Assembly: GCA_001661245.1 (NCBI GenBank)
Contig: KV454013.1
Coordinates: forward strand, 21,005-85,004
DNA: 64,000 nucleotides
Direction: 5' to 3'
Source of the DNA: Pachysolen tannophilus NRRL Y-2460
Taxonomy: Eukaryota
Shown here one piece after another: positions 2,371-53,749 of the stretch. The number at the start of each line of letters is the position of its first letter. Within the stretch, counting starts at the first letter, position 1. Below the pieces are notes generated by a model. It worked only from the letters and a program-made list of their open reading frames with translations. It ran no database searches and had not been told where the DNA came from. Position numbers and translations under genes: made by a program.

Positions 2371-4941
2371 CTAAGCGACATCTTCCCCAGGCTTTTCGGT
2401 CTTCGACCATCCTAATCTTTTATTTAACCTTTCATATTTCAATCTATCTCTATCGCTAACACTCGGCTTTACACTATCTAAAGCTGCGTTGAAATCGCCC
2501 ATTGTCACAGAAATCTCATTTCCTGACTCATTACTAAATTTTGACTCACCGTTTTCATCTTCATACAACCCTTCAATATTTTCGTCACCTGTATGAATCC
2601 TAGTAAAAAATTTCCTTTTAAGTGCAAAAACACCAGCTTCTCTAACTACTGACGATATATCAGCACCAGAAAAATTATTACATCTTTCATCATTCGCAAT
2701 ATCATTCAAATTAACCATAGGATCTAACGGTGTTTTATTTGTGGTTATTACTGTTTTGAATATCTCAAGTCGTTCCTCTGGAGTTGGTAACTCTATATAC
2801 AAGGTCTTGTCCAATCTACCAGGTCTCAACATTGCTGGATCAATCATATCTGGTCTATTCGTAGCGCCAACAACAAAAATTTGTTGTCTTCCGTTCAAAC
2901 CATCCAACTCCGTTAATAACGTATTGACCACTCTAGAAGAAGACTCCGAAAGTGAAGAATCTCTTCTTGGTACCAACGCATCTAATTCATCAAAAAAGAT
3001 AATACAAGGTATCGATGCACTGGCTCTTTGAAATACTTGTCTAATCAGTTTTTCTGACTCACCAACGTATTTATTAAGTAACTCTGGTCCTTTTATAGAT
3101 ATAAAGTTAGCTTTAGATTCATTTGCTATTGCCTTTGCCAACAAAGTTTTACCGCAACCAGGAGGACCCCACATAAGTACTCCTGATGGTGCAGTAATAC
3201 CAACCTTTTCGTAAATTTCGGGATTTTTAATGGGCTGCACTATAGACATTTGCAACTCTGCCCTAATCTTCGTCAATGCACCAATGTGGGACCAGTCAAC
3301 ATCAGGTATAGTCGCAAAACCTTCTCTCTTAGCAGTTGGTTGAATATTAGGTAAAGCAGTTAAAAAATCCTCAAATTTAACTGCTAAAGGTTCCAATTGC
3401 TCTTTGGTTAATGGATTCGGATGTCTATATAGAAACTTCTTAATTGTAGACAAATTGTTGTAATCAGGGATCAAACCCGCCTCTTTTTTTTCTTGTGAAT
3501 GCTTTTGATTTAAATTGCTAGCGTTATCCATATCTATCTCCATATTATCATTTTCTAACAGTAAACCAATCAATTTATCTTCCTCTGATTCGTCGTCCAG
3601 TTCTGAAATTTCTTTAAAGATTCTTTTGATGGCAGCAATTCCAGCTGTGGTAGTTAATGCTTTCAAATCTGCACCAACATAACCCGGAGTTAGTTTTGCC
3701 AATTTCATTAACTTTAAATCACCGTCAATCTTCATTTTTGAAGTCATGGATTTAAGTATATTGAACCTTGTCTTTTCATCTGGGACTTTAACTGAAATTT
3801 CTCTTTCGAATCTTCCAGCCCTTCTCAAAGCCGGGTCTAACGAATCTGGTCTATTGGTTGCCGCCAATACCACAACCGGTTTACCATTTGTATTTTCAAA
3901 CGATAATTCATCTATAGAGGTTAATAATTGGGCAACAATTCTCCTTTCCATTTCTCTTTGAGCACCACCATCCCTCTTTGGAGTAATTGCATCGATTTCA
4001 TCAAAAAATATTAAACATGGTGCTAAAGATTTTGCCTCTTCAAATATTTCTCTTATTTTTTTTTCACTTTCTCCAGACATACCACTTACAACAGATGGCG
4101 CACTTAACGATATAAAGGGACATTGTAAAGTTCCAGCCAATGCGTTGGCAATTGTTGTCTTTCCACACCCCGGTGGTCCATTGAATAATATACCCCTTAT
4201 TGGCTGAATATTCAAAGATGAATATATTTCAGGGTGCTGCATTGGAAATATCACTGACTCGTATAATTCATCTTTTAATTCTTCCATACCTCCTAAATCG
4301 TCTAAAGTTATATTTGGAGTCACTGATCGATCTGATGAAGTTTTATGTCTTTTGGAAGATTTGTTATTCTCCTTTGATCTTTTCTTAGAATTCTTTTCAT
4401 CTGCTATAGAAGTTTCCACTGGACCATTAGTATCGTTATCATTAACATTAGTATTACTATTAACACTTTCTTGGTCTTCTTTCTTTTCTGCCATATTCCA
4501 AAGATTAACTATACTCTTATTCATTTTATTTTCATCTTTAACTTCTACAAGATCCTGTGTTGATTTCTCGTCATCTTTTGAACCATCTTCCCCCAAATTG
4601 TGTATATCAATACCTAACTCACTTAATTCATGTTCTTCTTTTGACTTAATTAATTTCCAAGTTTTATCAATAGCTTTCTCCAAGAGAACTTTTTTCTCTC
4701 TTTGTAATCTCATAACTTTTGACTGAGAATAAAATAAAATTTCACTATACTTCAAATCTTTGGCAAAAGCCGTAACTTTAGTTAATTCTGCTGGATCACT
4801 TTCATCTATATTAGGATTCTGCTCTTTTAAATACAGTGTCTTCTCTTCCAATAAACTACTTATCAAATCCGATATAGTCTTCTCCAAAGGTGTTAATGAC
4901 AAATAGGAGTTCTTTCTCCTTACCAGATGTGACTTTGCCAT
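2371..4941 (-). CDS. RIX7: Type II AAA-ATPase Rix7/NVL (60S biogenesis)
   Basis: Two AAA modules (GPPGCGKT twice), SVVSGMSGESE, AQREMERRIVAQLL, QPTAKREGF. Confidence 0.95.
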   Translation of the reverse strand: MAKSHLVRRKNSYLSLTPLEKTISDLISSLLEEKTLYLKEQNPNIDESDPAELTKVTAFAKDLKYSEILFYSQSKVMRLQREKKVLLEKAIDKTWKLIKSKEEHELSELGIDIHNLGEDGSKDDEKSTQDLVEVKDENKMNKSIVNLWNMAEKKEDQESVNSNTNVNDNDTNGPVETSIADEKNSKKRSKENNKSSKRHKTSSDRSVTPNITLDDLGGMEELKDELYESVIFPMQHPEIYSSLNIQPIRGILFNGPPGCGKTTIANALAGTLQCPFISLSAPSVVSGMSGESEKKIREIFEEAKSLAPCLIFFDEIDAITPKRDGGAQREMERRIVAQLLTSIDELSFENTNGKPVVVLAATNRPDSLDPALRRAGRFEREISVKVPDEKTRFNILKSMTSKMKIDGDLKLMKLAKLTPGYVGADLKALTTTAGIAAIKRIFKEISELDDESEEDKLIGLLLENDNMEIDMDNASNLNQKHSQEKKEAGLIPDYNNLSTIKKFLYRHPNPLTKEQLEPLAVKFEDFLTALPNIQPTAKREGFATIPDVDWSHIGALTKIRAELQMSIVQPIKNPEIYEKVGITAPSGVLMWGPPGCGKTLLAKAIANESKANFISIKGPELLNKYVGESEKLIRQVFQRASASIPCIIFFDELDALVPRRDSSLSESSSRVVNTLLTELDGLNGRQQIFVVGATNRPDMIDPAMLRPGRLDKTLYIELPTPEERLEIFKTVITTNKTPLDPMVNLNDIANDERCNNFSGADISSVVREAGVFALKRKFFTRIHTGDENIEGLYEDENGESKFSNESGNEISVTMGDFNAALDSVKPSVSDRDRLKYERLNKRLGWSKTEKPGEDVA

Positions 4942-5007
4942 CTCTCAAGACAGGTCAGCTCAGTCTTTTTCGATTAGACAAATTCAATATCAAAATCTTT
5001 TAAAAAC

Positions 5008-5018
5008 TGAAAAATTTT
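5008..5018. promoter_or_regulatory. RRPE element in the RIX7/VPS20 divergent promoter
   Basis: Exact TGAAAAATTTT about 70 nt upstream of the start codon of a ribosome-biogenesis gene. Confidence 0.6.
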
Positions 5019-5158
5019 TAAAAACTTTTTTTTTTTATTTTTAATTTTTATTTTTTTTTTTTTTTCAGCTGTACATAAGAGTGTAAAAATTATATATATA
5101 AATATATATATAATATATAGAAAGATAAGAGATATGTCCGAGATTATAGAACAATAGA

Positions 5159-5821
5159 ATGGGGAACACATCATCAGTTTCTTCACCTAGGGTGACTCCT
5201 CAGGATAAAGCAATACTACAAATGAAGCTTCAAAGGGATAAGTTAATCAAGACACAGACCCGATTATCGGTTATTATGAATAAGGAAAAACAAATTGCAA
5301 TAGAAGCGTTACAGCAAAATAATAAGCAAAGAGCGTTATTAGCATTGAAAAAGAAAAAATATCAAGAATCATCTATTAATAGGATCAATGATCAGTTAAT
5401 AAGTTTAGAGAATTTGATAAACTCAATTGAATTTAAATTAATAGAAAAAGATTTTTTGTATGGTTTAGAACAAGGTAATAAGATTCTTACACAGCTTAAT
5501 AAAGAAGTTTCTATAGAGAAAGTAGATAAATTGATGGATACTACACAAGAAGGTATACGGTATCAACAAGAGGTTGATGATATGCTAAGTCAGCGTTTAA
5601 ATAGAAGTGAAGAAATGGAAGTAGATGAGGAATTAAAAGAGTTGGAAAGACAAGAATTAGGCTTGCCAGAAGTAAAAAAGGAACCAAAAGAATTATCAGA
5701 ATTATCAGAATTACCAGAAGTACCAAAGACTGATATTGAAGAAGAGCCCGTTGAAGAACTTCCAGAGCAAAGTATACAAAAAAAAGAAAGGGAAAGAGAA
5801 GAGGAACTTTTAGCTTCTTAA
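5159..5821 (+). CDS. VPS20: ESCRT-III subunit Vps20
   Basis: N-myristoylation start MGNTSS, QDKAILQMKLQRDKL, Snf7 domain, acidic tail with LPEVP motifs. Confidence 0.92.
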   Translation: MGNTSSVSSPRVTPQDKAILQMKLQRDKLIKTQTRLSVIMNKEKQIAIEALQQNNKQRALLALKKKKYQESSINRINDQLISLENLINSIEFKLIEKDFLYGLEQGNKILTQLNKEVSIEKVDKLMDTTQEGIRYQQEVDDMLSQRLNRSEEMEVDEELKELERQELGLPEVKKEPKELSELSELPEVPKTDIEEEPVEELPEQSIQKKEREREEELLAS

Positions 5822-6023
5822 TTGTAGGAATTTTTTTTAATTTAATTATTGTTATTATGCATTCTTTTTTTTTATAGGTAGACATATAAATTTTTTGGTT
5901 ATTTAGGCTTGTGATAGAAAAAAACTAATTTCATAAAGTGATTAATTATATATGTTATATCTTACTTTTGAGACATTATCAATGTTATTAATTAAATTGG
6001 GAAACATACGAGCCATAACAAAT

Positions 6024-7058
<1,035 letters not shown>

Positions 7059-7291
7059 TCAATCTCTATCACAATATAATATATTTCAGTGTATTTTCTT
7101 CATATATATATATATATATATATTTGTCTGAATGAACAAAAGTACCACCAACCTTCCCGACTCATCGGTAATTTTTCACGGACATATATATTTATGGCAC
7201 AGCCATATCTGGTAATATGTTCCTAGTTACCGTAACTGGAAGTCCAAATTTGAAATGTCCATTTGTGGAAAAAACCCAAAATCTCAAATTA

Positions 7292-7300
7292 GTCACGTGA
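7292..7300. promoter_or_regulatory. Cbf1/bHLH site GTCACGTGA
   Basis: Exact RTCACGTG beside a poly(dT) tract in the HEM2/J-protein divergent promoter. Confidence 0.55.
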
Positions 7301-7528
7301 TTACTTTTTTTTTTTTTTTTTTTTGGTTTTTTTGGTTTTATTTGTTTTTCTTTTCACGACACAAATTTTGTGACACTTTTTTTTTTTCAATTTTTTTAAT
7401 TTTGACCACTTTAAAGGTGTCATCTATTTTTCGTGACGCGTCAGTCAGAGCTAATTTATATATGAAGATGCTAGAGATTTAATAATCATATTAATAATAA
7501 TAATAATAATAGATTCATTATAGCAGCT

Positions 7529-8302
7529 ATGACTGTTCCATTCCCTGATATCAATCCATATGATGTACTAAAAGTACTGGAAAATGTGACTCCTTCAGAG
7601 ATCAGGAAGGCTTATTTTAAGTTAAGTCTTAAATATCATCCTGATAAAAGACCAAGAGATTTAAAGGAAAAAGAAATAGCAGAATTTACTGTTACTTTCC
7701 AAAAAATTCAATTTGCTTATTCTATATTATCAGATATAAACAAACGTAAGAAATATGATCAGACTGGGCAGTTGGAAGATTTTGCCATGGATGAAGATGG
7801 TGAATTTAATTGGAAAGATTATTTTGATAGTACCAAGACTCAAGAAATTACACCAGAATTGATTGAAAAAGATAAAAAAAATTATCAAAATTCTAAAGAT
7901 GAAGAAAATGATATTTATGAAATGTATCAATATTATGAAGGAGATTTCTTATTATTATTTGAATCAATTCCTCATAGCGATATAGAAAAAGATGAAAAAA
8001 GATTTTTCAAAATTATACAAAATTTAATAACTGAAAAAAAACTTGTTAAAACAAAAAAATTTGAAAAATATATAAAGAAAAGAGATCAAGAAATTCAAAA
8101 ACAATTAAAGAAAAACCTGAAAGAAGCAAAAGAAGCAGAAATTTTACAAAAAGAATTAAATATAAAGAAAACTGATTTAAATGATTTGGCTGGTTTGATC
8201 CAAAAAAGGAACAATAAGAGAGCCGCGCAGGCTGACGATTTTTTCGCAAAATTAGAAGAGAAATACAGTTCAAAGAAAAAAAAGAAGACTACAAAGAAAT
8301 AA
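7529..8302 (+). CDS. J-domain protein, DNAJC9-like
   Basis: J domain with HPD; Y..S..E..D middle region; KEAKEAE and DDFFAKLEEKY C-terminal motifs typical of the DNAJC9 family. Confidence 0.8.
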   Translation: MTVPFPDINPYDVLKVLENVTPSEIRKAYFKLSLKYHPDKRPRDLKEKEIAEFTVTFQKIQFAYSILSDINKRKKYDQTGQLEDFAMDEDGEFNWKDYFDSTKTQEITPELIEKDKKNYQNSKDEENDIYEMYQYYEGDFLLLFESIPHSDIEKDEKRFFKIIQNLITEKKLVKTKKFEKYIKKRDQEIQKQLKKNLKEAKEAEILQKELNIKKTDLNDLAGLIQKRNNKRAAQADDFFAKLEEKYSSKKKKKTTKK

Positions 8303-8582
8303 ATAGATGATATATATATATCTATATATATATATATCTATATATGTCTTTATTAATTTGATAAACAAGAACTTGTTGTTTGTTTGGTACTACAACTTGT
8401 GATTATGAACCGCCCACCCGTGCTCAGCAACGTATTATGTAAACTTGCTCGTCTCGAAATATGTATGTATATAATCCCCCACATTTTATTTTTTTTTCTT
8501 AGAAATTTTTCATAGTTGTAATTTTTCAATTTTATAAAATTTTTGTTCATTTTACTCAGAGACATCTAGCAAGTTGATTATA

Positions 8583-9749
8583 ATGGCTCCAGCTAGAAAG
8601 TTAGTTATGCAACCAGGCCCAATCGAGTTTTCGGACTCGGTTTTGCAGGCTATGGCAACTCCATCTCAATCTCATATGTCGCCTGAGTTCGCACAGGTTT
8701 TCCAAGAAACTCTTATTAAGACAAGAAGTTTGTTCAAGTCTTCAAATGATTCAAAATCTCAACCAATTGTACTCGCAGGTTCAGGTACTCTTGGTTGGGA
8801 TTTGGTTGGCTCGAATTTAATTGACTCACCAGAGGAAAAAATCTTGGTGTTATCAACAGGATTCTTCAGTGATTCATTTGCACAATGTTTGCAATTGTAC
8901 TCCGATAATGTTGATATATTATCGGCAGAATTAGGTAATGTCATTGATTATTCCAAATTAGAATCGCATTTAAAATTGAAAAATTATTCTATTGTAACAG
9001 TTACTCATGTCGATACTTCAACTGGTGTACTTTCAGATATAGCTAAAATTGCTTCAGTTGTTAAAAAAATTTCCCCAAGTACATTGATTGTTGTTGATGC
9101 TGTATGCTCTGCAGCTGTGGAAGACATCGAGTTTGATAAATGGGAGTTGGATTTCGTACTATCTGCGTCGCAGAAGGCTATTGGTGTTCCTTCAGGTTTA
9201 TCTATTTCGATTGCCTCTAAGAAAGTTGTTGATAAAGTATTAGCAAGAAAATCTAGAGCCAAAAATTTTTTTGCTAATTTACAACGATGGATTCCTGTTT
9301 TGGTAGCTTATGAAAGTGGTAAGCCAGCTTATTTTGCAACTCCACCGGTTCAACTAGTTCACGCATTGAATGTTTCTTTGAATTCTATTCTTTCAGTCCC
9401 ATTAGATGAAAGATTTAAAGAGAACCTTAAAGTCTCCCAAGATTTCAAAGCAAAATTGGGTAAATTAGGATTGAAAGTTGTTCCACTGAGTGGTCTGGAA
9501 ACTTCTGCATTGACTGCAGCTTATTTTCCTGAAAACATAAATCCTGCAGAATTTTTATCAAAAGTTTCTTCAAAAGGTGTTGAATTAGCGTCAGGAATCC
9601 ATCAAGGCATTCACCCTAAATATTTTAGGGTTGGCCACATGGGTGTAAGTGCTTTAGATCATACAAACGGTAGAGACGATGTTCAAAAGACTTATGAAGC
9701 AATTAAAGAATCTCTAATTGAATTGGGTTACACAGTTCCTACTAAATAG
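8583..9749 (+). CDS. AGX1: Alanine:glyoxylate aminotransferase (class V PLP enzyme)
   Basis: PGPIEFSD, GSGTLGWD, THVDTSTGV, SASQKA (PLP lysine), YFATPPVQL; first ATG at 8583 rather than the TTG at 8574. Confidence 0.92.
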   Translation: MAPARKLVMQPGPIEFSDSVLQAMATPSQSHMSPEFAQVFQETLIKTRSLFKSSNDSKSQPIVLAGSGTLGWDLVGSNLIDSPEEKILVLSTGFFSDSFAQCLQLYSDNVDILSAELGNVIDYSKLESHLKLKNYSIVTVTHVDTSTGVLSDIAKIASVVKKISPSTLIVVDAVCSAAVEDIEFDKWELDFVLSASQKAIGVPSGLSISIASKKVVDKVLARKSRAKNFFANLQRWIPVLVAYESGKPAYFATPPVQLVHALNVSLNSILSVPLDERFKENLKVSQDFKAKLGKLGLKVVPLSGLETSALTAAYFPENINPAEFLSKVSSKGVELASGIHQGIHPKYFRVGHMGVSALDHTNGRDDVQKTYEAIKESLIELGYTVPTK

Positions 9750-9900
9750 TTTTTATAATATTACTCAAGATTTGTTTTTCTACAACTAAAAATTTTCATA
9801 GCAATATGTATATTTCAAAATTTCAAAAAGAAAACATTATTTTAAATCCATTTACTGTATTTATTTATTTTTTTTTAATTTTTTATTTTTTACCTTTTAT

Positions 9901-11310
9901 TTAAACAGGTAGAGGGAACAAATCAGCCCACTGTGAAATCTCTTTCTTCAAAGCAGTCAACTCTTCAGAACCTTCGGCTATCTTTGCCTTGAAATCCTTT
10001 AATCTATTAGCATCAGTTGGTAATTCCGATTGGACTCTCTTGGCAATTTGTACAGCTCTGTCAATGTAGTCAGCAATTTTAACAAAATCACCTTCACCTA
10101 AACCTCTTGTTGTCATTGCTGGTGCACCAATTCTAATACCACCTGGAACTAAAGCAGACTTATCACCTGGAATAGAATTCTTGTTCAAAGCAATGTTGAT
10201 GTTTTCACAAACTGTTTCAATTCTTGCACCATCAATACCTTTATCCCTTAATGAGACTAAAACCATATGGGAATCAGTTCCGTCAGAAACTAATTTGTAA
10301 CCTAATTTTTTGAATTCAACTTCCAAAGCTTTTGCATTTTTCAACACTTGTTGTTGATATTGAACAAATTCTGGAGTATTAGCTTGTTTCAAAGCTGTTG
10401 CTAAAGCAGAGATAGTATGATTGTGTGGACCACCTTGGTGACCTGGGAAAACAGAAAAGTTGATTGGATTTTCCAAATCGTAGTAAATTTCCTTACCGGT
10501 CTTAGGGTTAACTGATCTGACACCTTTTCTGAAGAAGATCATTGCACCTCTTGGACCTCTTAAAGATTTATGGGTAGTGGTGGTAACAATATCAGCATAA
10601 TGGAAAGGAGATGGAATAACAGAAGCTGCAATTAAACCTGAGATATGGGCCATATCAACAACCAAGTAAGCACCAACTTTATCAGCAATTTCTCTCATTC
10701 TCTTGTAGTCAATTAATCTACAATAAGCAGAAGTACCAGCAACAAGAACCTTTGGTCTAAATAAGATAGCTGTTTTTTCCAACATATCGTAATCAATGAT
10801 ACCAGTTTCTAAGTTAACTCTGTAAGGCATAGTTTCAAAATAAGTAGAAACAGCTGAAATTTTTCTGGTATCAGTTTGGTAACCATGGGATAAATGACCT
10901 CCATGAGGTAAATCAAGACCCATTAATCTATCGTGAGGTTTCATTATAGCTTGGTAAACTTGTAAATTGGCTGGAGAACCTGATAAAGTTTGGACATTAA
11001 CACCCCATTTATCAGCATCTAAATGGAAAGCAGCTAAAGCTCTCTGTTGACATAATAATTCCATTTTATCAATGTGTTCATTACCACCGTAGTATCTAGC
11101 ACCTGGGTAACCTTCTGAATATTTGTTACACATTGGGGTACCCAATGCATCAAAGACAGAAGTTGATGTAAAATTTTCAGAAGCAATCAAGACAATAGAA
11201 TGCTTTTGTCTATCAATCTCATCCTTGATGATTTGGGAGACCTCTGGATCAGTATCATTTAAATGACCCTCCATCATTTGTTTGTGAGCATCGGATAAAA
11301 CGTAAGTCAT
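9901..11310 (-). CDS. SHM2: Cytosolic serine hydroxymethyltransferase
   Basis: [35 protein letters not shown]; no mitochondrial presequence. Confidence 0.95.
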
Positions 11311-11370
11311 CTTGTCTATTTAGTGTTAGTTGATTATATAGAAACTGTTCAAGACAATATAGATATTAAA

Positions 11371-11407
<37 letters not shown>

Positions 11408-11489
11408 GGCATAAATATTTTGTATGGTTAAATTGGGGATGATATGAAAAATAGACAAAAAAAATTTTTCAATGTGAAATAATAATTTT

Positions 11490-11690
11490 TGACTCCGGAT
11501 TTTGAAAAAATGCGATGGATATTTGATAAGATATTTTGATACTGAATCTATAAGTATATTTTTGATCAAGGTATTTGCTTATTACGAGTCATAATTACAA
11601 AGAGGATTCTATTAAAGATGACACTGTGTAGAGAGTTTGTTTTGTATAATATAGTCAAAGCTTACCCCATACTTTTCGATGCTTTGACTC
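11490..11690. promoter_or_regulatory. Three TGACTC cores (Bas1/Gcn4 type) upstream of SHM2
   Basis: TGACTC 11490-11495, GAGTCA 11586-11591, TGACTC 11685-11690. Confidence 0.55.
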
Positions 11691-11916
11691 TGCTCTCTTT
11701 GAATACGTAGTTGCAATTTTTATGTTAAGTTAGTGGCACCGCTTTGGATGTTATTAATGACTATATTACAATCGAGTTCAAAATTAATAATTCTAATTAC
11801 AATAAATACATTATCTAAAGCAGGAAACCTAAATCTATAAATCAAAAAATCAATTTTATAAAATATTTTCAATAGTAAAACATAAAAAAAATACCCTATT
11901 TTCCCTCTGTAAAATT

Positions 11917-13944: not shown

Positions 13945-13950
13945 ACAAAT

Positions 13951-14319
13951 TCAGTAAAAGCTATCTCTCCTTCGGAGTTCTTCTGTGAAATTTATAGTAT
14001 TTGACGAATTTGGCTTAGTTAACTTATCATTAATGAACAATTTATTTATACTTATGAAAATGGACAAATATAGTAATGATAAAAAGAGTAAAACTTGAAT
14101 TACTCTGATTTCAGAATAAGTTTGATGATAATTTTTCAAGATAACATAAATTTGAGAACTCTCCCACAACACAAACTTGCAAAAAAAGCAAAAACAAGCA
14201 GAAAATAGAAAAACCTCTTTAAATTTAACAGAAAATCTTAATGATTTGAAATTATTGGATTTTGAAACTATATACGAAGTATGAGATTTCCTATCTTCGA
14301 TCTTGTTTAATATTATCAT
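13951..14319 (-). CDS. Putative 122-aa two-TM protein in frame with GPI1 (possibly a Gpi15/PIG-H N-terminal-like fragment)
   Basis: ATG-initiated 122-codon ORF in very AT-rich DNA with two hydrophobic segments; stop lies 6 nt before the GPI1 ATG in the same frame. Confidence 0.35.
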   Translation of the reverse strand: MIILNKIEDRKSHTSYIVSKSNNFKSLRFSVKFKEVFLFSACFCFFCKFVLWESSQIYVILKNYHQTYSEIRVIQVLLFLSLLYLSIFISINKLFINDKLTKPNSSNTINFTEELRRRDSFY

Positions 14320-20974: not shown

Positions 20975-21023
<49 letters not shown>

Positions 21024-41374: not shown

Positions 41375-41392
41375 GCAGGCAGGCAGGCAGGC

Positions 41393-41426: not shown

Positions 41427-41427
<1 letters not shown>

Positions 41428-43237: not shown

Positions 43238-43533
43238 AATATTTTATATATATATATATATATATACTAATCAAGTTTCATTACCAATCATAAAAGTTAG
43301 TTAATTAATTGTATAGTAGTGTACTAAATATCAGTCTATTTTCATTGTGATGCCTTCGTTCATTCGTAAAACCAGAAGAAAAGAGATGACCAAGAATGAG
43401 TAATATACCATATAATATAAGTAAAGTTGTGAATTTCCTTTTCTTATGAAGCCTTTTTTGTGAATTTGAAGATCAATTAAGCTGCAATTTCACAGTTTTT
43501 GTTCTCTTTTTTGAGGGTTTTTTTTTTTTTACA

Positions 43534-44970
43534 ATGATCAATACTCGTTTAAAAAAATTAGATAGATTGGTGGTACCAATATGGAAACGATATGGTAGTT
43601 TTCAAAAAAATGTAACGAGTACAAATGTTTTGAAAAGACCAAATTTTGATTATAAAGGTATTATTGAAGATCAAACAGATTATATAGAGAGTATTCTCAG
43701 AAGAGAACTAAATCCGCAATTAGTTGATGACTGTAGGGATATTAAATCGTTGTATGCCAAATTTGTAGATCAGGATGTTACATTGAGAAATTTGAAAAAT
43801 GAGAGAAATATTTTGAATGATGAAATTAAAAAAATCAAAAGTTTAAAAGATTTATCATCAAAGGATAGAGAAAAAGAGATTTTAAGTAAATTAGCAGAAT
43901 CGAAGAATATCGTTAAAATTTTAGAATCTGAAATTGATCTTGTAAGAGATGATCTCTTTTTAAAAGCTGAATCCTTACCTAATCTTTTAGATTCGTCTGT
44001 TGATGATAAAGAAGATATAATATCGTATATTAATCCAATTCAAGATGTGGAATTTTTTGATTTAAAAGAAAATTCTAAATTTGATCATAAAGAAATTGCA
44101 GAAAGATTAGGTATAGTTGATTTTAAAATTGCTTCTAAAGTTTGTGGTAATTCTTGGTATTATTTAATTGGTGACGGTGCTCTATTAGAACAAGCTTTAG
44201 TGCAGTATGCTTTAAAATTGGCTAGACATGAAGGTTTTAAAATGGTTATTCCACCATCAATTGTGAAAACAGAAATTACAAACTCTTGTGGTTTTAAGCC
44301 AAGAGACCAAAGTAATGAACAACAAGTTTATGAATTAACCAACGATGGATTATGTTTAACTGGAACAGCTGAAATCTCTCTTGCAGGACTACATATTAAC
44401 AAAGTTTTTGAAAATCCTGAAGCCTTACCTTCTAGATTGGTTGGAGTTAGTAGAAGTTATCGAGCTGAGGCTGGTGCAAGAGGTAAAGATACAAAAGGTT
44501 TATACCGTGTTCATGAGTTTACTAAAGTTGAACTTTTCAGTTTTACAAAAGCTAATATTAAACATTCTTTACTGGAATTGGAAAAATTATTAAATTTCCA
44601 AAAAAAATTTATTGAATCACTTGGTTTAACTGCTAAAATCATAAATATGCCTGCAAATGATTTAGGAGCACCTGCTTATAAAAAATATGATATCGAGTGT
44701 TTTATGCCCGGTAGAGGCAATTGGGGGGAATTATCCTCGGCATCAAATTGTACTGATTATCAATCAAGAAGATTAAATATAAAATACAGAGACACTTCAG
44801 ATGGAATGAAATTGAAATACGTCCATACTTTAAATGGTACTGCAGTAGCCGTTCCTAGAGTTATTGTTGCTATAATCGAGAACTTCTACGACCCTGAAAC
44901 AGAATCCATCATCATACCAAAAGTCTTGAGAGAATACATGGACGGTAAAGACAAAATTGTTAAACAATAG
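43534..44970 (+). CDS. DIA4: Mitochondrial seryl-tRNA synthetase
   Basis: Basic presequence, LTGTAE, YRAEAGARGKDTKGLYRVHEFTKVE, SNCTDYQSRRL, HTLNGTA. Confidence 0.92.
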   Translation: MINTRLKKLDRLVVPIWKRYGSFQKNVTSTNVLKRPNFDYKGIIEDQTDYIESILRRELNPQLVDDCRDIKSLYAKFVDQDVTLRNLKNERNILNDEIKKIKSLKDLSSKDREKEILSKLAESKNIVKILESEIDLVRDDLFLKAESLPNLLDSSVDDKEDIISYINPIQDVEFFDLKENSKFDHKEIAERLGIVDFKIASKVCGNSWYYLIGDGALLEQALVQYALKLARHEGFKMVIPPSIVKTEITNSCGFKPRDQSNEQQVYELTNDGLCLTGTAEISLAGLHINKVFENPEALPSRLVGVSRSYRAEAGARGKDTKGLYRVHEFTKVELFSFTKANIKHSLLELEKLLNFQKKFIESLGLTAKIINMPANDLGAPAYKKYDIECFMPGRGNWGELSSASNCTDYQSRRLNIKYRDTSDGMKLKYVHTLNGTAVAVPRVIVAIIENFYDPETESIIIPKVLREYMDGKDKIVKQ

Positions 44971-45780
44971 GAGGATTCCAAAATATATATATATATATAT
45001 AAAAATAAACTGTTTAGATGTAAATAGTTAATAGTAAATATAAGTAATAAGCGAGTTTATAGTACATGTATATATCAAGCTGTGAATTTCCTAATCATTC
45101 TTGTAAGTTTCCCTTTTCGTAACTGATTGCGGCCGCGATTTTAGGAAAGCTTACACATTGATAAGTACTGAAACAAAGAAAGAATATGTATGTTTCTGCA
45201 CGTTTGGATAATAGGCCCCAAAATAGTAATGTTTCGAATACTGATAGGACCTAAAGAACTTTCAGTTAAAGGTTAAAGAAGGCAACTATTTTACATTTTT
45301 ATTAAGTTGGTTAGTGGTTTTAGATCTCCGTTTTTATGGTTTAGTTTATTTATGCTTTTTTATGGTTTTTTGTTTCCGTTTTCCTCCATTGAAAAAGGAT
45401 AAAGAAACTCACAGCTGTAAATGTTTGTAAAATGAATACAACACTGTATTTACAATGGCAACTCACAAGACTTTTTCAGAGCAATTATGTTATCCAGGAT
45501 GTAATGGAGCAAAAAAAATGTATTCTCGGCAGGTTGAATCCTAAATTACTGGCAATTCGTTTGATCGATATGATAAGGCAACTGACTACTTTTTTTTTTT
45601 TTTTTTTTTTTTTTGTCTTTTTGTCCCAAGCATTGCTATTTACTATAAATATACCCCATCTCCTCTCTTCAAAAAAACTTAACTGTGCTGCTCAGAAGTT
45701 AATAAATAATACTTTGTGGAATTGTTTTTTTTTTTCGTTCTTAAATAACAAAATTTGAAGCTTAATTGAGTTGTAGTAGG

Positions 45781-46899
45781 ATGGCAACTGCAGAATTAAT
45801 CACTAATATCAAAGATGGTAATACTCGTAAGAGTATTTCTTATGATAAATATGTCGATAGTATTAAACCAATGTATCAAGAATTGGCAAATGTTGATATA
45901 ACGGAAAAATTTAATCCAAAGATTCATTTAAAATTCACTTCAAATGAAATTGAAACCACTTCTCGTTTAACCATGAGTGAATTAGGTATACATGATGAAA
46001 ATGCTATTAGTGAAATTGGTGTTTCAGATCCATTTGCTTTATTCACTGATACAGCTGTTGAAATTATGCGTGCAGAATTATTAAGAGAAGAAGTTTTCAC
46101 TAAATATTCAAGGGTTTCTCATTTATCAACTTCAGGTTTGGATTGTGTTGTTCGTGGTTATGCCAAAGATACTTGTCCATTTACTTATACTGCATGGACA
46201 CATCCACTGACAGTTGCTGCTGTTAGTGCAATGGCTGGTGTTGAATTAGAAGTTATAATGGATTATGAAATTGCTCATATTAACATTGGTATGCAAAGCG
46301 AAGAAATGGCTGAAAACCAATTACTCATGGCAAAGAGAAAGAAATCCATGACTGATAAGTTTGATGATGATATTCCAGCTATTGTAGGTTGGCATAAAGA
46401 TAGTTACCCATTTGTTTGTGTATTAATGCTCAGTGACACTGAAACTTCAATTGGAACTGAAACCTTATTGAAAAAGGGTAATGGTGAAATTATTGGTACT
46501 CCAAACCCTTCAAAGGGTAAAGCTGTGGTTTTACAAGGTGGTTTGATCAATCATCTTGCTCCAAAACCTTTAGGTTTCACAGAAAGAATCACTGCAGTTA
46601 CCTCCTACCGTGCTAAAAACCCAATGACAAAAGATTGCTCTGTCTTGAGATCAGTAAAACCAGAAGTCAACTTTGGTTCCAATTTCAACACTTTTTATCC
46701 AGATTGGGTCAATTACAGAATGAAATTAGTTGCAGAGAAATGTGAATTGATCAAAAACGAAATCGAAAAAGAGGCAAATGAGGGTAAAACTTTTAGAAAA
46801 GAAGACTGGATGCAATCTCTAAAAGATCTAGAAAACTATGTTGCTACAACCTGGAAGGAAATGGTGGTTACCAATGAAGAATATGCTCGTGCTCTTTAG
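45781..46899 (+). CDS. Fungal 2-oxoglutarate/Fe(II) oxygenase-like protein
   Basis: WHKDSYPFVCVLMLSD (HxD), VLQGGLINH, ERITAVTSYR; first ATG at 45781. Confidence 0.75.
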   Translation: MATAELITNIKDGNTRKSISYDKYVDSIKPMYQELANVDITEKFNPKIHLKFTSNEIETTSRLTMSELGIHDENAISEIGVSDPFALFTDTAVEIMRAELLREEVFTKYSRVSHLSTSGLDCVVRGYAKDTCPFTYTAWTHPLTVAAVSAMAGVELEVIMDYEIAHINIGMQSEEMAENQLLMAKRKKSMTDKFDDDIPAIVGWHKDSYPFVCVLMLSDTETSIGTETLLKKGNGEIIGTPNPSKGKAVVLQGGLINHLAPKPLGFTERITAVTSYRAKNPMTKDCSVLRSVKPEVNFGSNFNTFYPDWVNYRMKLVAEKCELIKNEIEKEANEGKTFRKEDWMQSLKDLENYVATTWKEMVVTNEEYARAL

Positions 46900-47346
46900 A
46901 GATAAAGTAATAATGATACTTTTAAAATAAATCTTTTTTTTTTCTTTCCTATTTTTTTTTTATTCTCTTGTGCTATCTTAGATCAACCAAAATCTGATAC
47001 TACTGATACCAAGATCCTCTAGTTAAATATTCTTGTTACTTATGAACCCAATTAAATGATATGATATATAAAATTATACTTCCCCATAGTAATTTCTGCC
47101 CATACTAATTCAGCGCAATAAAAACCAAAAATCAAAGTAGTGCTCAAAATATCAAATTTTGTGCTCACTGTTTTTTTTTGTTTACATTTTAATGTTTTTG
47201 TTTACCGCAATACAACTTTTAATAATTACATTTCTATAAAGTGATGTATCAGTATAAAATAGTAGTTGGTATTGGTTTGGTTGATAGGGAAGAATAGGTG
47301 AAGGGTAAAAATTTTTTTTTCTATTGTTGTTGTTGTTGTTGTTGTT

Positions 47347-48795
47347 ATGCTGGATGCTGGTTTGAAGATGTCTTTTAGTGAAAATCAGTCTTCTTCGGTT
47401 AAAAAATCCGGAGCTTTACATAATCTTAAAGCTTATAATGTTGATTCATCAATTGATACACCGGGTGCAAGTCCATCACAAGAGCAGTTTAGTCATAATG
47501 TGGATCATACGGCGTCGATATCGACACCTTCTCTTAGCTCACCGCCGGGGTTGAGGCAGTCGTCGATATCGCCTTCGAGAAACTTATCTGCTATTCCGCC
47601 GTTACCAATACCTGAGAGTATGGATGTTCAATTAAGATCCACAGTACAGAATCTGAAAAGAAAATTTGATGTGAATAAGTTTAATTTTGGTTCAGAGCTG
47701 AATTTAGAAAATATAGATGATATTAGGGCAAAGCTTGAGTATATTCAACTGAGTTTAAATAATATTGTTGATAGAAGTAAATCAAATAATTCTTATATTA
47801 AAAATTTTGGTATACAATTATCAGAATTTAATGAATGTTTTAAAAAAAGAGAAATTGAAGAAAATGATCTTTTAACAAATACTCTTTTCAAAGAATATTC
47901 AAATGAAAAATTTGAATCATTAATCATTGCTTTAAATGAGTTATCAATTAAGTTATTGGAACCAAAAAATCAAAATAATAATGTTGACCAATTTATTGAA
48001 TTAATTAAAGAATTTTTATCAAAAAATAATAATGAAAATATTTATCAACAATTAATAAATAAAATTGATATATTAAATACTTTTCAAAATGAAAAAGAAT
48101 TAAAATATAATGAAAAAATTTTAGAATTAGAGGAAAAAATTTTATTACAAAAAAATGAATTAGAATTATTAAAGATAAAACAAAATATTGAAAAAGAACC
48201 TATTTTAGAATCAAAATTAAAAGAATATGAATTAAAAGAAGAATTGAATTCTTCAATTGCAGAATTTACTCTGAAAAATACTGAATTACAAGTTAAACAT
48301 ATGGAATTGAAAACTCTTTTACAACATAAAGAGGAACAAGTGGATCAAGTATCCAAGATTTTATTATCAAAAGTTGAAGAACTTCAAAATTTAAAACTTA
48401 AATTTAAAAATTTGAAATCAGAAACAGAATATTACTTAATATCAAGACCTGATAGATCTAGTATAAATCATAACATGTTCGAATTAAAATCTTCTCATCA
48501 CCAATTATTAGATGGTACTGGAAGTTCAGGTTCAGGTTATTCATCTCAACCATCTTCAGCTTCCGGATATACTACAACCTTGGCTCATAGCTCAAAACGA
48601 AACTTTACCGCAAATGATACAATACTATTAAAAGCATCTCATAACTTATCGCCAATAGATATCAACACTCAAAGTTTTAGCTCGTCTGGTTTATCCGTTG
48701 AGAAAAATAAACCATTATCAAACATTAGTCCACAAAAGAAGAAAATACATAATGAAATCGATACGAATAAAGAAAATTATAACGAATTGACATAA
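47347..48795 (+). CDS. Uncharacterised coiled-coil protein with SP/TP-rich ends
   Basis: 482-codon ORF; heptad-rich E/K/L centre; disordered S/P-rich termini; C-terminal KEN. Confidence 0.75.
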   Translation: MLDAGLKMSFSENQSSSVKKSGALHNLKAYNVDSSIDTPGASPSQEQFSHNVDHTASISTPSLSSPPGLRQSSISPSRNLSAIPPLPIPESMDVQLRSTVQNLKRKFDVNKFNFGSELNLENIDDIRAKLEYIQLSLNNIVDRSKSNNSYIKNFGIQLSEFNECFKKREIEENDLLTNTLFKEYSNEKFESLIIALNELSIKLLEPKNQNNNVDQFIELIKEFLSKNNNENIYQQLINKIDILNTFQNEKELKYNEKILELEEKILLQKNELELLKIKQNIEKEPILESKLKEYELKEELNSSIAEFTLKNTELQVKHMELKTLLQHKEEQVDQVSKILLSKVEELQNLKLKFKNLKSETEYYLISRPDRSSINHNMFELKSSHHQLLDGTGSSGSGYSSQPSSASGYTTTLAHSSKRNFTANDTILLKASHNLSPIDINTQSFSSSGLSVEKNKPLSNISPQKKKIHNEIDTNKENYNELT

Positions 48796-49127
48796 AACCA
48801 GCCCCATCCTGAGAGCGCAAAGCTTTTGATAACCATTTAGCTAAGAGGATATAGTTTTTTATTTTTGTACAAGTCTCAATATATTAAATAACTACCGTTT
48901 AATTTGTATTGTATAATAAAAAAAAAAATTTCTTAAAAAAAAATAAAATAAAAAAACATAAAAAATATCATGAGCTACTTTAAATATAAACATAATTACA
49001 TGTAAATAAAACAGTTTAATTAATTGAAGGAACAAACATAGAGATAGTTTTTGATTCATCGATAAAGTAATCTTTGCTCATCTATTATTTAGGTCTTCGT
49101 TTATATGAAATAAGGAAATTAAACAGA

Positions 49128-50738
49128 ATGTCTAATAATAAGGATGTTAATTTGAGACCGTATTATAAACCTGTGGAATTTAATCATAATTTATATGAAG
49201 TAGGTTATAATGCCGCTGATGGAGTAATCGATCATAGAACTGGTAAGCCCATTTCAGCATCACTTCCAACTACTTTACAATTCAATAATAATAATGGTCA
49301 TCATCATGGGAACATTACTTCAATAGGTTTAGCAAACAGCAATGGTATTAGAACTTTAAATAAGGGTAAAATTAGTACGATACATGATGCTAACTCATCT
49401 TCAGTTTCAGACAAGAATATGTATTCAGATTTGGAGTTTCAAGAATATTTTGATTATAACAATTTGAGAGAATTAATAAAATCATTGATAAACTCATTTA
49501 TCAAAAATTATGTTAGAATATTAATAAGTCAGCCATTTGAAGTTTCTAAATTGCTTTTACAAGTTGGTTCTTTCAATACATCTATAGAACCTAAAAATGT
49601 TGGCTACCAAGAAAAGAAATACTTGGATAGTTTGAGTGATGTTGGAGATGATGAGGAAGATGATGAGAATGATGAAATTGATTTTTTCGTACTGGCCCCG
49701 GATGAACAAGATTATTCAATGTTAACTTCTAGTCCAAAAGATGATAGTAAGAAACAACATTCTAGACGTAAGTCCAATATCGAGAGATCTGTCCCAACCA
49801 TAAAAGTTGCAAAAGATAAATCCAAGGCATTAAAAAGACAAGGAAGACATCATATACAACCATTATCACTACATACAATTGATATTATGTCCTCATTATT
49901 ATCTAAAGAAGGTACAAAGGGTTTATGGAGATCTATAAACACTTCCTTTATCTATCAGACGTTGTCAAATACTATAGAAGCATGGCTTACAGGATTTTTA
50001 TCTCCATTATTAAATATTCCAGATCCATTTTTCATTGATATTATACATTCATCTAATCCTTTCAAGAGTTTATGTTTGAGTATAGTTGCTGGTGTCTTGA
50101 CAGGTTTGGTATTACAGCCAGTTGAATTGATCAAATTTAAATTCAGTGTTACTTCAACCAATTTAAATTTTGCAAAAAGATCATTTAGGAAGACAATAAC
50201 TTCTTTTGAACCTAAAAATTTCTTGATTCCTTACTCTTTAATTTTACCAGCATTTAATTATTTTTTGTCTGCAAATTTCATTAAAAAATATGTTCCTTAT
50301 TTGTTATTCACAAAATTCAACATAGATAATTATACGTCACCTGTGTTATATTCAGCTACCACGCTTTTAACATCGATATCAGAATTATTTATTAAATTAC
50401 CTTTAGAATTATTGTTAAGACGTGCTCAGTTTAATTACTTGTTAAATGATGAAACTTGTAACGAAGCATTAAAAATTGAAAAAGATGAATTGAGTGTAAA
50501 GTTTGGTGGCTACTATGGATATTTACCAACTTTATATTACGTTTATAAAGGTACAAGACCTCACTATATTGAAGAATCGGATGACAATTATGATGATTTT
50601 GACAAAGAAAATGAAAATAAAGGTTTCGAGGCAATATTTAGAGGTTGGAGAGTTGGTTTGCTAAATGTCTTGGGAAGCTGGGGTGCTGGTGTTTTAAAAA
50701 ATAATTTTGATGAGAACACAAAAGAGGAAAGATTTTGA
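49128..50738 (+). CDS. UGO1: Mitochondrial fusion protein Ugo1
   Basis: LRPYY N-terminal motif, SQPFEV..LLQVG, EGTKGLWR, KLPLE..LRRAQ, FRGWRVG; first ATG at 49128. Confidence 0.9.
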   Translation: MSNNKDVNLRPYYKPVEFNHNLYEVGYNAADGVIDHRTGKPISASLPTTLQFNNNNGHHHGNITSIGLANSNGIRTLNKGKISTIHDANSSSVSDKNMYSDLEFQEYFDYNNLRELIKSLINSFIKNYVRILISQPFEVSKLLLQVGSFNTSIEPKNVGYQEKKYLDSLSDVGDDEEDDENDEIDFFVLAPDEQDYSMLTSSPKDDSKKQHSRRKSNIERSVPTIKVAKDKSKALKRQGRHHIQPLSLHTIDIMSSLLSKEGTKGLWRSINTSFIYQTLSNTIEAWLTGFLSPLLNIPDPFFIDIIHSSNPFKSLCLSIVAGVLTGLVLQPVELIKFKFSVTSTNLNFAKRSFRKTITSFEPKNFLIPYSLILPAFNYFLSANFIKKYVPYLLFTKFNIDNYTSPVLYSATTLLTSISELFIKLPLELLLRRAQFNYLLNDETCNEALKIEKDELSVKFGGYYGYLPTLYYVYKGTRPHYIEESDDNYDDFDKENENKGFEAIFRGWRVGLLNVLGSWGAGVLKNNFDENTKEERF

Positions 50739-50979
50739 AAAGCTGTAGTTATTTTTTCTTATTTTCTGTTTATGTATATATTTTATTAGGATTGATAAAA
50801 ACTTTCCTATTCTCTTTTTTTTTATTTTTTTTTATTGCTTTATTTCTATGATGAGTATGATAGTGATTTATTATGAATGATTAATTAATTATTTAGTAAA
50901 GTAACTACAATGATTTGTGTCCAATATTGATTTCTTTGTTTCTTTTTTCTTTATTTCTTTTTTTTTTTCATTCTATATG

Positions 50980-51609
50980 TTAACTATCTTCCATTTTAAC
51001 GTTACCTTCTTCATCTTCTGCTTTAATTGCTTGATCTTGAGTTTGTTGATGATTTTCCTGTTTCTTCTTCAATTCTTCCTCTTCTTTGCCTTTAGTAATC
51101 AACCATTCTCCTAACCATTGCAACGGGTGTTCAGGTTTAACTCTTCCCAATTCTGCAAGTCCGTCTTTCAAATGAAGAGTAACATTCTCGTTGAAATATC
51201 GCCGTAACATAGAACCACCAACAATATCTGCCTTATTCAACCCTTTCGGTATTTCCAAAGTGGCTGCCTTAGCTGTAGGAGTGGAACCTCGATGTTGCTT
51301 AGTTGTATTATTATTAATATTATTATTAAAACTATGATTCCCTCCATTATTACTACCGGTATTACTTGTGACTTGATGCCTTTGTCCACCCAGAGAAATA
51401 GAATCAGGTTGTAAGCCAATCTCAATTGTTGATGTAGTCAATTGCTGTGGCACTGGTGTTGTACTAGCAGATTCCAATTGATCTACTGTTGTTGCACTGT
51501 TTACCTGTTGTGTCTCGACCGGTGGTGGTGAAACAGTCCTATCACCACCACTAGATTCACCAACATTATTATCCTCACTATTCTTACTGATCAAATTGGA
51601 CAATTCCAT
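50980..51609 (-). CDS. SDC1: COMPASS subunit Sdc1 (Dpy-30 domain)
   Basis: VGGSMLRRYFNENVTLHL..GL...KPEHPLQWLGEWL. Confidence 0.9.
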   Translation of the reverse strand: MELSNLISKNSEDNNVGESSGGDRTVSPPPVETQQVNSATTVDQLESASTTPVPQQLTTSTIEIGLQPDSISLGGQRHQVTSNTGSNNGGNHSFNNNINNNTTKQHRGSTPTAKAATLEIPKGLNKADIVGGSMLRRYFNENVTLHLKDGLAELGRVKPEHPLQWLGEWLITKGKEEEELKKKQENHQQTQDQAIKAEDEEGNVKMEDS

Positions 51610-52242
51610 TTTATTCTTACTTGCGAGAAACTCTGATCTCTTTGGTTTAAACTCTAAATAACAAATAGTAATATTTAAACGTTATTTTTGAATAAATGTG
51701 AATTATATTGAAATGTAAGCTCAACACTACTTTTAAACGGTTGAAAAAAAAAAATACGAAACCAGTTTTCAAAAAATAACTATTAATTGAACTTCTTGTA
51801 AATGGTATTTATTATTAATTTATTATAGATAGCTATTTATTAATTACTATATTTGCTATGATTAGGTGAAAACTTCCATAAAAAACCAAAAAAAAAAGAG
51901 AAAAATAAATAAAATCAAAATAAATGAAAACTATCAACAAGGAAAAGCAAAAACAATCATTAATTAAGTGTTGAAAGTTCCATTTACCGAAACAAAATTC
52001 AAAGAATTACCAAGAACTTGCGAAAAAAAGGGAAGAATAAAAAAAAAATGTATACAGCAAACACTCTCAACTAAAAAACAAAAAAGCATTTATTTTTATT
52101 TCCATTGACCAAACAACTCTGCTAAGTTAAGTTTCTTTTTTTTTTTTTTTTTTTTTTCGTTTTTTTTTATATAAATTATCATTTTATTATGGGTTTCTCC
52201 TTTTTTTTTTTCTTTTTTTTTGTTTTTGTTGGTCTATTTTCT

Positions 52243-53749
52243 TTAATCTGAGATATCACTGATAAAAGTCACCTCACAATAAGCGACTCCATCTTCCTCA
52301 ACAGTTTCCAATCCATCACCATGACTGCTTAAATGAAGTTTGTTACAAAATTGATAAATATAAGGTTTAGTGCCAACAACACCATTGACAAAATTTTTAA
52401 CAAAAGTTGGAATTTCTGCCATAACATCAACTCTTTCACTTAAATTACCTAAATCACCTTTAACAATAGTTTCAACTTTAGTAGCTTTACCATTTTCAAT
52501 ATCTTCTTCTAAAGTGTTTGTATTTAAGAAACCTTTCAAAATAAATTCAATTTTATGAGGTACTGGCCAACCAACACTATCAATTTTGGATTCTAAATGG
52601 TTGATCTTATTATCAATAGTACAACTTATAATATTTGATTCATCTGTAACAATACCAACAGAAACATTTGTTCTATCATAAGATTTTGGAGTTGTAAAAT
52701 CCATTACAACAACCGAATGTTTTGGAGAGATGAAATTCATAAAATTCCAAGAAGCAGCAGCATGATGTGGTTTCATACCTTGTAATGCCATAACAAACAT
52801 TGATATACCATTAATTGGACGAATAATTGGATCTTTTTTCTCAATTTTTTTTTCAATCTCAATTTGATCCTGTTGTTCAGATTTTTTATCACCATCAACA
52901 TCATCATCATTCTTGTTATTATCTTTTACTTCTTCTTCTTCTTCAAGTAAAATTTCTTTTTCTTCAAGTTTAATAACACCATTTACATTACATCTTGGCC
53001 AAAAAACATGTCTCATTAAACCCCATGGTTCATTAATATCATCACCATAATACGTCGTGCCGTCTTTCCCAAATTTCACGCCTTGTACTGTTTTATTAAT
53101 AGTTAAATCAATAGAAACCTCATCAGATGCGTTACTTTCAAAATGTAAAGAATTTCCATCTTCACTTAATTCAACTTTTAAATTTTTAGCATAAAAATTT
53201 GTACCTTCAATTCTAAAATCTTCTAATTTTGTTGATGTCCAAACATAATCATCTGGAGTATCTTTATGAAATATTTTAAAAGTTTGTTGAGCAGTAGTAT
53301 ACAATCCAATAACAGTTGAATGAATGATCTGTGCAAATCCCATATATCCGGTTTCAAAACATGTAAAATAAAAAGTTTGAGTTTCAACATTTGTAGTATC
53401 AGGATGTAACCATTTTAAATCATCAGCAGTTAATGTACTAAAAGTTTTCTTATTTTCTAAACCATCTGTAACCGGATGAATCGCCTCCCTACCATACAGC
53501 GGCTCAGCTAACCCAGTAACCGCTGAAATACTATTCATATAAATTGATATTGTCTTGTTAGCATTGTCACATATTCATAATAAACAGAATAATTTTTAAA
53601 ACCAAAAAAAAAGATAAACCACAAATTGCTTTGCCTTTTTTAAAATTTTTAAAAAATATAAAAGAAAGAAAAAAAAACAATAACAATTCAAAAAATAATT
53701 TAAGATAAAAATCAATTAAAACTTACCCAGACTGAACCCATCTAAGCAT
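52243..53749 (-). CDS. SVF1: Survival factor Svf1, two exons
   Basis: Exon 1 53749-53727 (MLRWVQSG); intron 53726-53531 (GTAAGT, variant branch TGCTAAC 53563-53557, TAG); TNVETQTFYF, MRHVFWPR, ALQGMKPHHAA..WNF. Confidence 0.93.

Follow-up and report, generated by a model that had tools for sequence, protein, structure and literature searches.

Twenty-six large open reading frames (ORFs) were found in the window, by which is meant the whole stretch of 64,000 nucleotides that was analysed. In-frame CTG codons numbered 71 and were spread over 20 of these ORFs (15,045 codons). The six ORFs free of CTG were Vps20, Hem2, Shm2, Rps0, Vps29 and Hsp10, and the statement of an earlier note on this DNA that a changed meaning of CTG alters every translation was therefore too strong. 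Gene names other than those obtained from Pfam, PDB or database matches are provisional labels. All ten CTG codons named earlier were found in frame, at the position and in the sequence context quoted. The features considered were as follows.

297..63984, both strands: the 26 large ORFs; their CTG codons are almost certainly read as Ala
3046..3048, minus strand: Rix7 residue 632, conserved Ala column (Ala 109, Ser 10 of 119 orthologues)
7577..7579, plus strand: J protein residue 17, variable polar Asp/Thr/Glu column without Leu (Asp 26, Thr 18, Glu 15, Ser 7, Ala 4 of 82)
8117..8119, plus strand: the same DNAJC9-type J protein, residue 197, conserved Ala column (Ala in 71 of 82 homologues)
9486..9497, plus strand: aminotransferase Agx1, two CTG codons (9486 and 9495) in an unconserved loop, judged from PDB chains and Pfam
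17813..17815, plus strand: ferric reductase (Fre8-like) residue 183, hydrophobic position, Leu slightly favoured by Pfam
21265..23973, plus strand: Hsf-type ORF with 12 CTG codons, several within Gln-rich low-complexity runs
28140..28142, minus strand: Prp3 residue 534, conserved Ala column, new to this follow-up (Ala 96, Ser 2, Leu 4 of 137)
32372..32374, minus strand: Tom1 residue 2696, aliphatic column (Ile 40, Val 39, Leu 38, Met 2, Ala 1 of 120)
38714..38716, minus strand: Tom1 residue 582, conserved Leu column (Leu 107, Ile 10 of 120; Ala and Ser absent)
42296..42298, plus strand: CTG of the amidase signature (GGSIRTPS-x-F), pairing with the Ala of PSAF in FAAH
44572..44574, plus strand: mitochondrial seryl-tRNA synthetase (SerRS, Dia4-like) residue 347, unconserved, Gln or Glu in PDB homologues
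46207..46209, plus strand: in-frame CTG of an ORF earlier labelled an oxygenase, no Pfam match
53497..53499, minus strand: in-frame CTG at Svf1 residue 14, outside both Pfam domains
G000:C6:217831-217902, minus strand, outside the window: tRNA-CAG gene, found with the third sequence pattern

CTG had been proposed to occupy small-residue positions. This was the case for Rix7, for residue 197 of the J protein and for the amidase. The sites at residue 17 of the J protein and in Dia4 and Agx1 are unconserved and carry no weight. The Rix7 coding sequence (2371-4941) holds five CTG codons, all five of which are Ala in the public protein copy (P0001). At residue 534 of Prp3, Ala was present in 45 of the 60 closest homologues. 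The amidase was compared with five FAAH chains, all near-identical, and its Pfam score was 288.1, 292.5 or 292.2 bits when CTG was read as Leu, Ser or Ala. The corresponding scores were 73.5, 75.6 and 75.6 bits for Agx1, whose residue 302 is unconserved across four PDB chains, 100.1, 103.2 and 101.6 bits for the Dia4-like protein, which was compared with five mitochondrial SerRS chains, and 88.7, 86.9 and 88.1 bits for the Fre8-like protein. No relatives of Svf1 were found in a metagenome scan. Tom1, whose residues were counted from the open frame, behaved differently. The earlier suspicion that its residue 2696 could be Leu agreed with the column, in which 117 of 120 residues are Ile, Val or Leu, and residue 582 is the strongest counter-example to an Ala reading. 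Homologues taken from raw assemblies may have been translated with the standard code, which would place false Leu residues in such columns. The Leu column at residue 582 is nevertheless real, since five named orthologues (Ogataea, Wickerhamomyces, C. arabinofermentans, Komagataella and Kuraishia) also carry Leu.

The tally of residues at CTG columns that had been suggested was carried out on the orthologue alignments of four genes. Over 15 CTG columns Ala was the best of the 20 residues with +8.8 bits, compared to -14.5 bits for Leu and -15.2 bits for Ser, and the same test recovered the standard residue for 12 of 12 control codons. When columns with at least 50% occupancy were counted, 3 of 16 CTG codons lay in columns with at least 60% Ala, compared with 1 of 496 for the remaining Leu codons (Fisher p=1e-4) and with 9 of 361 Ser codons (p=0.011). 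Columns with at least 60% Leu accounted for one of the 16 CTG codons and for 252 of the 496 other Leu codons (p=4e-4), and columns with at least 60% Ser for none of the 16 and for 86 of the 361 Ser codons (p=0.028). CTG is thus unlike the other Leu codons in these alignments, and the expectation of the standard code fails. Two results weigh against Ala: at least 30% Leu was seen in 3 of 16 CTG columns versus 4 of 228 GCN columns (p=0.007), and the mean Ala frequency in CTG columns (0.22) was half of that for GCG and GCC (0.42 and 0.50).

Pfam scoring gave weak support for Ala when taken alone. In the window, 17 domains gave +12.8 bits for Ala and +12.5 bits for Ser; the best residue was Ser in six domains, Ala in two and Leu in three, with six ties. 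Scoring of whole proteins under tables 1, 12 and 26 did not separate Ala from Ser, and three ORFs had no match. Outside the window, 193 CTG sites in 170 kb were reduced by a filter to 51 and then to 45 scored fragments, 16 of which lacked a Pfam match. The remaining 29 favoured Ala over Leu by 17.9 bits (20 up, 4 down, p=0.0015) and over Ser by 8.0 bits (15 up, 5 down, p=0.04), although the fragments were chosen by hydrophobicity, a criterion that may put Ser at a disadvantage to Ala and Leu. Pooled over 46 Pfam comparisons, the sign test of Ala against Ser was not significant (p=0.2), and Leu was best in seven.

A tRNA-CAG gene with a G3:U70 pair, which the earlier note had proposed to look for, was found and is of the Ala type. 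It is 72 nt long, with A73, G37 and a short variable loop. The acceptor stem keeps the Ala-type G1-G2-G3-C4, and the first 12 bases are those of tRNA-Ala. Among 15 tRNAs of the same genome, identity was highest to tRNA-Ala(AGC) (73%) and tRNA-Ala(UGC) (70%), while it was 55-65% to three tRNA-Leu and 54% to two tRNA-Ser. The gene was unchanged in the contigs of four of four sequencing runs, which represent at most two samples, one possibly being the source. Owing to differences in its D loop and T stem it escaped two sequence patterns, and the third found it among the matches listed (100 of 126). A general A-box plus CAG pattern gave 35 matches (30 fetched, the other five duplicating fetched sequences), with this as the single CAG tRNA. 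No Leu- or Ser-type (class II) tRNA-CAG was found by the pattern searches and by ARAGORN on the fetched loci of this gapped assembly. The window itself contains no tRNA genes. An Rfam tRNA search of the genome, in which 63 of 1003 candidates were scored, showed no CAG tRNA among the 50 loci read. Both tRNA-Leu(AAG) and tRNA-Leu(UAG) are present in the nucleus. An ORF containing VLPHPPLS (L076, 2684-3973, minus strand) adjoins the tRNA-CAG gene at a distance of 0.86 kb. The legend of Suppl. Fig. 5d in PMC5951914 names a 'vlphppls' gene as the marker of the tA(CAG) locus of the Ala clade, and it is on this named neighbour that the likeness of the two loci is based.

Taken together, the tRNA-CAG type and the column test support the earlier reading that CUG is reassigned to Ala, and it appears nearly certain that this nuclear genome follows NCBI table 26 and belongs to the order Alaninales, with Pachysolen tannophilus as the very probable species. 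The tRNA gene would derive from the tRNA-Ala family, having acquired a CAG anticodon and kept the Ala acceptor stem. By the identity rules that PMC4937558 describes, the anticodon does not matter to alanyl-tRNA synthetase, which would charge this tRNA with Ala, and the lack of a long variable arm would keep leucyl-tRNA synthetase (LeuRS) and SerRS away from it. With no Leu- or Ser-type CAG tRNA found, CUG would be read as Ala, and the remaining CUN codons would stay Leu through tRNA-Leu(AAG) and tRNA-Leu(UAG).

CTG is one base away from TTG and the CTN codons, CAG, CCG, GTG and ATG, and two bases from any GCN codon. Where CTG falls in a Leu, Gln, Pro, Val or Met column, it probably represents a tolerated Ala substitution, being reached by one change from those codons instead of two from GCN. 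A small number could be former Leu codons left over from before the switch. Public NCBI and UniRef copies of the proteins already show Ala at CTG. Table-26 translations were found in NCBI, UniRef or nr for three of four proteins looked up, table-1 translations for none of five and a table-12 translation for none of one, although public annotation reflects the choice of a curator and not a measurement. Neither translation of the putative oxygenase ORF was found in protein databases, perhaps because another start codon is used.

The code is not new, as the earlier note had remarked; the CUG-Ala code of Pachysolen tannophilus (table 26) was published in 2016 (Muhlhausen et al. 2016, PMC4937558). 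The tRNA-CAG described there has the same G1GGC4, G3:U70, A73, G37 and unextended variable loop, a likeness that rests on the description in that paper and not on a base-for-base alignment. Nuclear tRNA-Leu(AAG) and (UAG) are likewise described, about 80% of genes bear CUG compared to 20 of 26 (77%) here, and no differences were found among the features compared with that paper. Codon-box fractions were 0.022 off those published for P. tannophilus and 0.128 off those of Peterozyma xylosa (33 codons). CUG as Ala is given as diagnostic of the Alaninales (Pachysolen, Nakazawaea and Peterozyma), an order placed beside the Pichiales (PMC5951914, PMC11182611), and the genome shares with this order the adjacency of tA(CAG) and the 'vlphppls' gene. 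In a quick tree of Rix7, a single gene with 31 of 120 rows and neither a named Alaninales nor an Ascoideales row, the window and one relative fell within a group with Komagataella and Pichiales (SH-aLRT 95), away from the Ser1 clade.

An explanation for the excess of Leu columns could be mixed decoding, in which CUG is chiefly Ala but a genuine share of Leu, supplied by wobble of tRNA-Leu(UAG) or by LeuRS mischarging at G37, is used at sites like Tom1 582. This is very unlikely, though the Leu-like G37 and CAG of the tRNA and the presence of tRNA-Leu(UAG) are consistent with it. For P. tannophilus, Suppl. Table 1 of PMC5951914 gives 243 Ala of 256, and the 3 in its second column would be Leu/Ile if the order matches that of Suppl. 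Data 1. However, Leu occurs in none and Ala in 158 of the 160 de novo CTG matches in published mass spectrometry of this species, and PMC4937558 reports Ala at 97.2% of 907 CTG positions and CUG to be as unambiguous as AUG. The published genome-wide BLAST profile at CTG (Ala 167.5, Leu 87.3, Pro 53.1, Gln 40.1, Ser 23.8 of 554) has the same Leu tail and raises Pro and Gln too. Mass spectrometry gives Ala in spite of that tail, and mutation in single steps accounts for the profile with no need of ambiguity. CTG is also enriched in Gln runs, at least two Gln codons within three positions being found for 7 of 71 CTG and 18 of 691 GCN codons (p=0.006). There is a slim chance that a small, possibly condition-dependent Leu fraction survives, on which Leu-site CTG codons in poorly expressed proteins (Tom1 residue 582) would depend. 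Such leakage would be the Ala/Leu counterpart of the ambiguity in Candida.

CUG is read as Ser in the Serinales (CUG-Ser1, table 12) and in the Ascoideales (CUG-Ser2), which include the stochastic Ser/Leu decoder Ascoidea asiatica. These codes share with the Ala reading the codon and the route, in which a tRNA acquires a new anticodon that its synthetase does not inspect, but they use a long-arm tRNA-Ser(CAG), some keeping a tRNA-Leu(CAG), whereas the CAG tRNA found here is short-armed. A Ser reading gains from the nearly equal Pfam sums in the window, from the DnaJ, SerRS and AAA-lid domains, where Ser scored highest, and from the Ser residues at Rix7 632. The earlier note had considered Ala the best fit with Ser possible at some sites; the Ala part stands, and the Ser option is removed by the Ala-type tRNA-CAG with its A73 end, the failure to find a Ser- or Leu-type CAG tRNA in the searches above, and the column test. 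The position of Rix7 outside the Serinales, in a tree without an Ascoideales row, also speaks against Ser, which is extremely improbable. Least credible of all is the standard code with mere Ala-to-Leu substitutions at the Ala columns, which could draw on Tom1 582 and 2696, Fre8 183, the seven Pfam comparisons best with Leu and wobble by tRNA-Leu(UAG), but is opposed by the near absence of Ala columns among other Leu codons and by an Ala-type tRNA-CAG at the Ala-clade locus.

With CUG read as Ala, table 26 is needed for this genome, as otherwise every one of the CTG-encoded residues counted in the window would be wrong, and CTG has to be removed from heterologous genes intended for this yeast. 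For tallies made site by site, a lone CTG in a Leu column is no proof of Leu decoding. As a separate observation, CUU is Leu in the mitochondrion through a tRNA with an AAG anticodon, contrary to a published listing.

The window is yeast DNA of 29.7% GC with 26 large ORFs, and its place in the host genome assembly (G000) is as follows:
G000:C3:21005-85004, window

The ten CTG sites singled out in the earlier note were all found in frame and in the contexts quoted. Of the 15,045 codons, 71 are CTG, spread over 20 of the 26 large ORFs. The remaining six, which we take to be Vps20, Hem2, Shm2, Rps0, Vps29 and Hsp10, contain no CTG, so the claim that the reassignment changes every translation in the window went too far. 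A Gln-rich context was more frequent for CTG (7/71) than for GCN codons (18/691, p=0.006). CTG was also seen inside poly-Gln runs, in the Hsf-type ORF at 21265-23973 (+), which alone holds 12 CTG, and at 39821; these are probably CAG-to-CTG changes.

CTG columns were examined in homologue alignments of Rix7 (n=119), Tom1 (n=120), the J protein (n=82) and Prp3 (n=149 in pairwise BLAST, of which the best 60 were aligned with MAFFT). Fifteen of the 24 CTG sites in these genes had at least half weighted occupancy and were scored. Ala was the best of 20 residues, with a summed log-odds of +8.8 bits against -14.2 for Glu, -14.5 for Leu and -15.2 for Ser. The same procedure recovered the standard residue for all 12 control codons, including CTA, CTC and CTT. 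Three of the scored columns were conserved as Ala, namely Rix7 632 (A109, S10 in 119 homologues), Prp3 534 (A96, S2, L4 of 137) and J protein 197 (A71/82). Tom1 582 (window 38714-38716, -) stood in a conserved Leu column (L107, I10 of 120) and Tom1 2696 in an aliphatic one (I40, V39, L38, A1 in 120 homologues); the rest were variable. Residues flanking Tom1 582 likewise depart from the family. The amidase CTG aligned to an Ala of FAAH, and the Dia4 and Agx1 sites fell at unconserved positions.

Pfam scores were compared for translations with tables 1 (standard, CTG as Leu), 12 (Ser) and 26 (Ala). For 17 domains in the window, Ala gained 12.8 bits and Ser 12.5 bits over Leu, leaving Ala and Ser unseparated. 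In 29 fragments picked by a composition rule from 170 kb beyond the window, Ala gained 17.9 bits over Leu (20 up, 4 down) and 8.0 bits over Ser (15 up, 5 down, p=0.04). The Ala-Ser sign test was not significant over the pooled 46 comparisons. Broad profiles therefore indicate that CTG is not Leu and leave Ala versus Ser unsettled.

A CAG tRNA was located by pattern search:
G000:C6:217831-217902 (-), tRNA gene, anticodon CAG

The gene is 72 nt long, begins with GGGCGTG and has the G3:U70 pair of tRNA-Ala, A73, G37 and a short variable loop. Bases 1-12 are identical to those of host tRNA-Ala genes. Within its own genome its identity was 73% to tRNA-Ala(AGC) and 70% to tRNA-Ala(UGC), falling to 55-65% for three tRNA-Leu and 54% for two tRNA-Ser. 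Together with the column log-odds, this Ala-type tRNA supports the Ala reading favoured in the earlier note. Of 35 matches to a general A-box plus CAG pattern, 30 were fetched, and among these ARAGORN called a CAG tRNA at the C6 locus only. Sixteen class II matches, ten read directly, comprised Leu AAG, UAG and UAA and Ser AGA, UGA, CGA and GCU. Apart from these, a Leu CAA gene was identified. No Leu- or Ser-type competitor with CAG was detected in these two pattern searches. The tRNA was unchanged in contigs of 4/4 public runs, which stem from no more than two samples, of which one may be the source. Just downstream, at positions 4777 and 4801 of assembly stretch L076, all four run contigs have one A more than the assembly, likely homopolymer errors outside the tRNA. 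An ORF with VLPHPPLS stands 0.86 kb from the tRNA; in PMC5951914 a gene called 'vlphppls' is listed, in the legend of Suppl. Fig. 5d, as part of the synteny around tA(CAG) in the four Ala-clade species.

The code of the window is the known CUG-Ala code. The public Rix7 protein has Ala at 5/5 CTG sites, and the public Prp3 protein at the 4/4 it covers. For the amidase, J protein and Agx1, the table-26 translation has an exact counterpart in NCBI, UniRef and nr, where table-1 versions (0/5) and a table-12 version (0/1) were not found. A quick one-gene tree with 31 rows placed Rix7 next to Pichiales. The order Alaninales is diagnosed by CUG-Ala in PMC11182611. Of the two species compared, codon-box fractions differed on average by 0.022 from published P. 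tannophilus and by 0.128 from Peterozyma xylosa, so the former is the likely species.

Under the AlaRS identity rules, as given in PMC4937558, G3:U70 and A73 would suffice for Ala charging of the CAG tRNA, with the anticodon unread, and the missing long arm would prevent Leu or Ser charging. Columns with at least 30% Leu were more frequent for CTG (3/16) than for GCN (4/228, p=0.007). CTG is one base from TTG/CTN (Leu), CAG (Gln), CCG (Pro), GTG (Val) and ATG (Met) and two from GCN, so newly arisen CTG Ala codons would tend toward such sites; a few ancestral Leu CTGs may also have been kept in Leu columns. The genome-wide BLAST row published for P. tannophilus CTG (A 167.5, L 87.3, P 53.1, Q 40.1, S 23.8 of 554) has the same shape as the window's tally. 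That a residual fraction is decoded as Leu at Leu-conserved CTG sites is very improbable; published de novo peptides of P. tannophilus gave, at CTG, Ala in 158/160 and Leu in 0. A possible wobble competitor is the nuclear tRNA-Leu(UAG) at G000:C8:422116-422249, whose gene has an intron of some 50 nt; a modified U34 is presumed in PMC4937558 to stop it reading CUG.

The mitochondrial contig C10 (28,450 b, stretches L078-L080) carries another tRNA of the CUN box, for which the usual mitochondrial anticodon is UAG:
G000:C10:25987-26059, mitochondrial CUN-box tRNA, anticodon AAG, 73 nt, short variable loop

It is the sole CUN-box tRNA among 24 mitochondrial tRNAs, and no description of it was found among the literature matches listed. 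Twelve ORFs use 22 CTT, 3 CTA, 0 CTC and 0 CTG. CTT aligned to Leu in Cox1 (6/6, best PDB match) and Atp9 (2/2), and ATA was frequent, mainly at Ile-type sites. These codon data fit table 4, whereas P. tannophilus mitochondria are put under table 3 in PMC9154068.

In Tom1 (window 30107-40459, -) and Rps0 (14882-15583, -) the frame stays open upstream of the first ATG, a sign of possible 5' introns or upstream exons. The public Prp3 model begins at aa180 of the 559 aa ORF. The window contains 506 N; two further features are:
window 54278-55008, assembly gap, long poly-T runs on both sides
window 63370-63999 (-), last ORF, reaches window end

Dispersed identical 33-base matches, presumably 5S rRNA, were found at G000:C1:821828, C1:829257, C5:82470 and C8:430744 and on the small contigs C81, C117 and C147.
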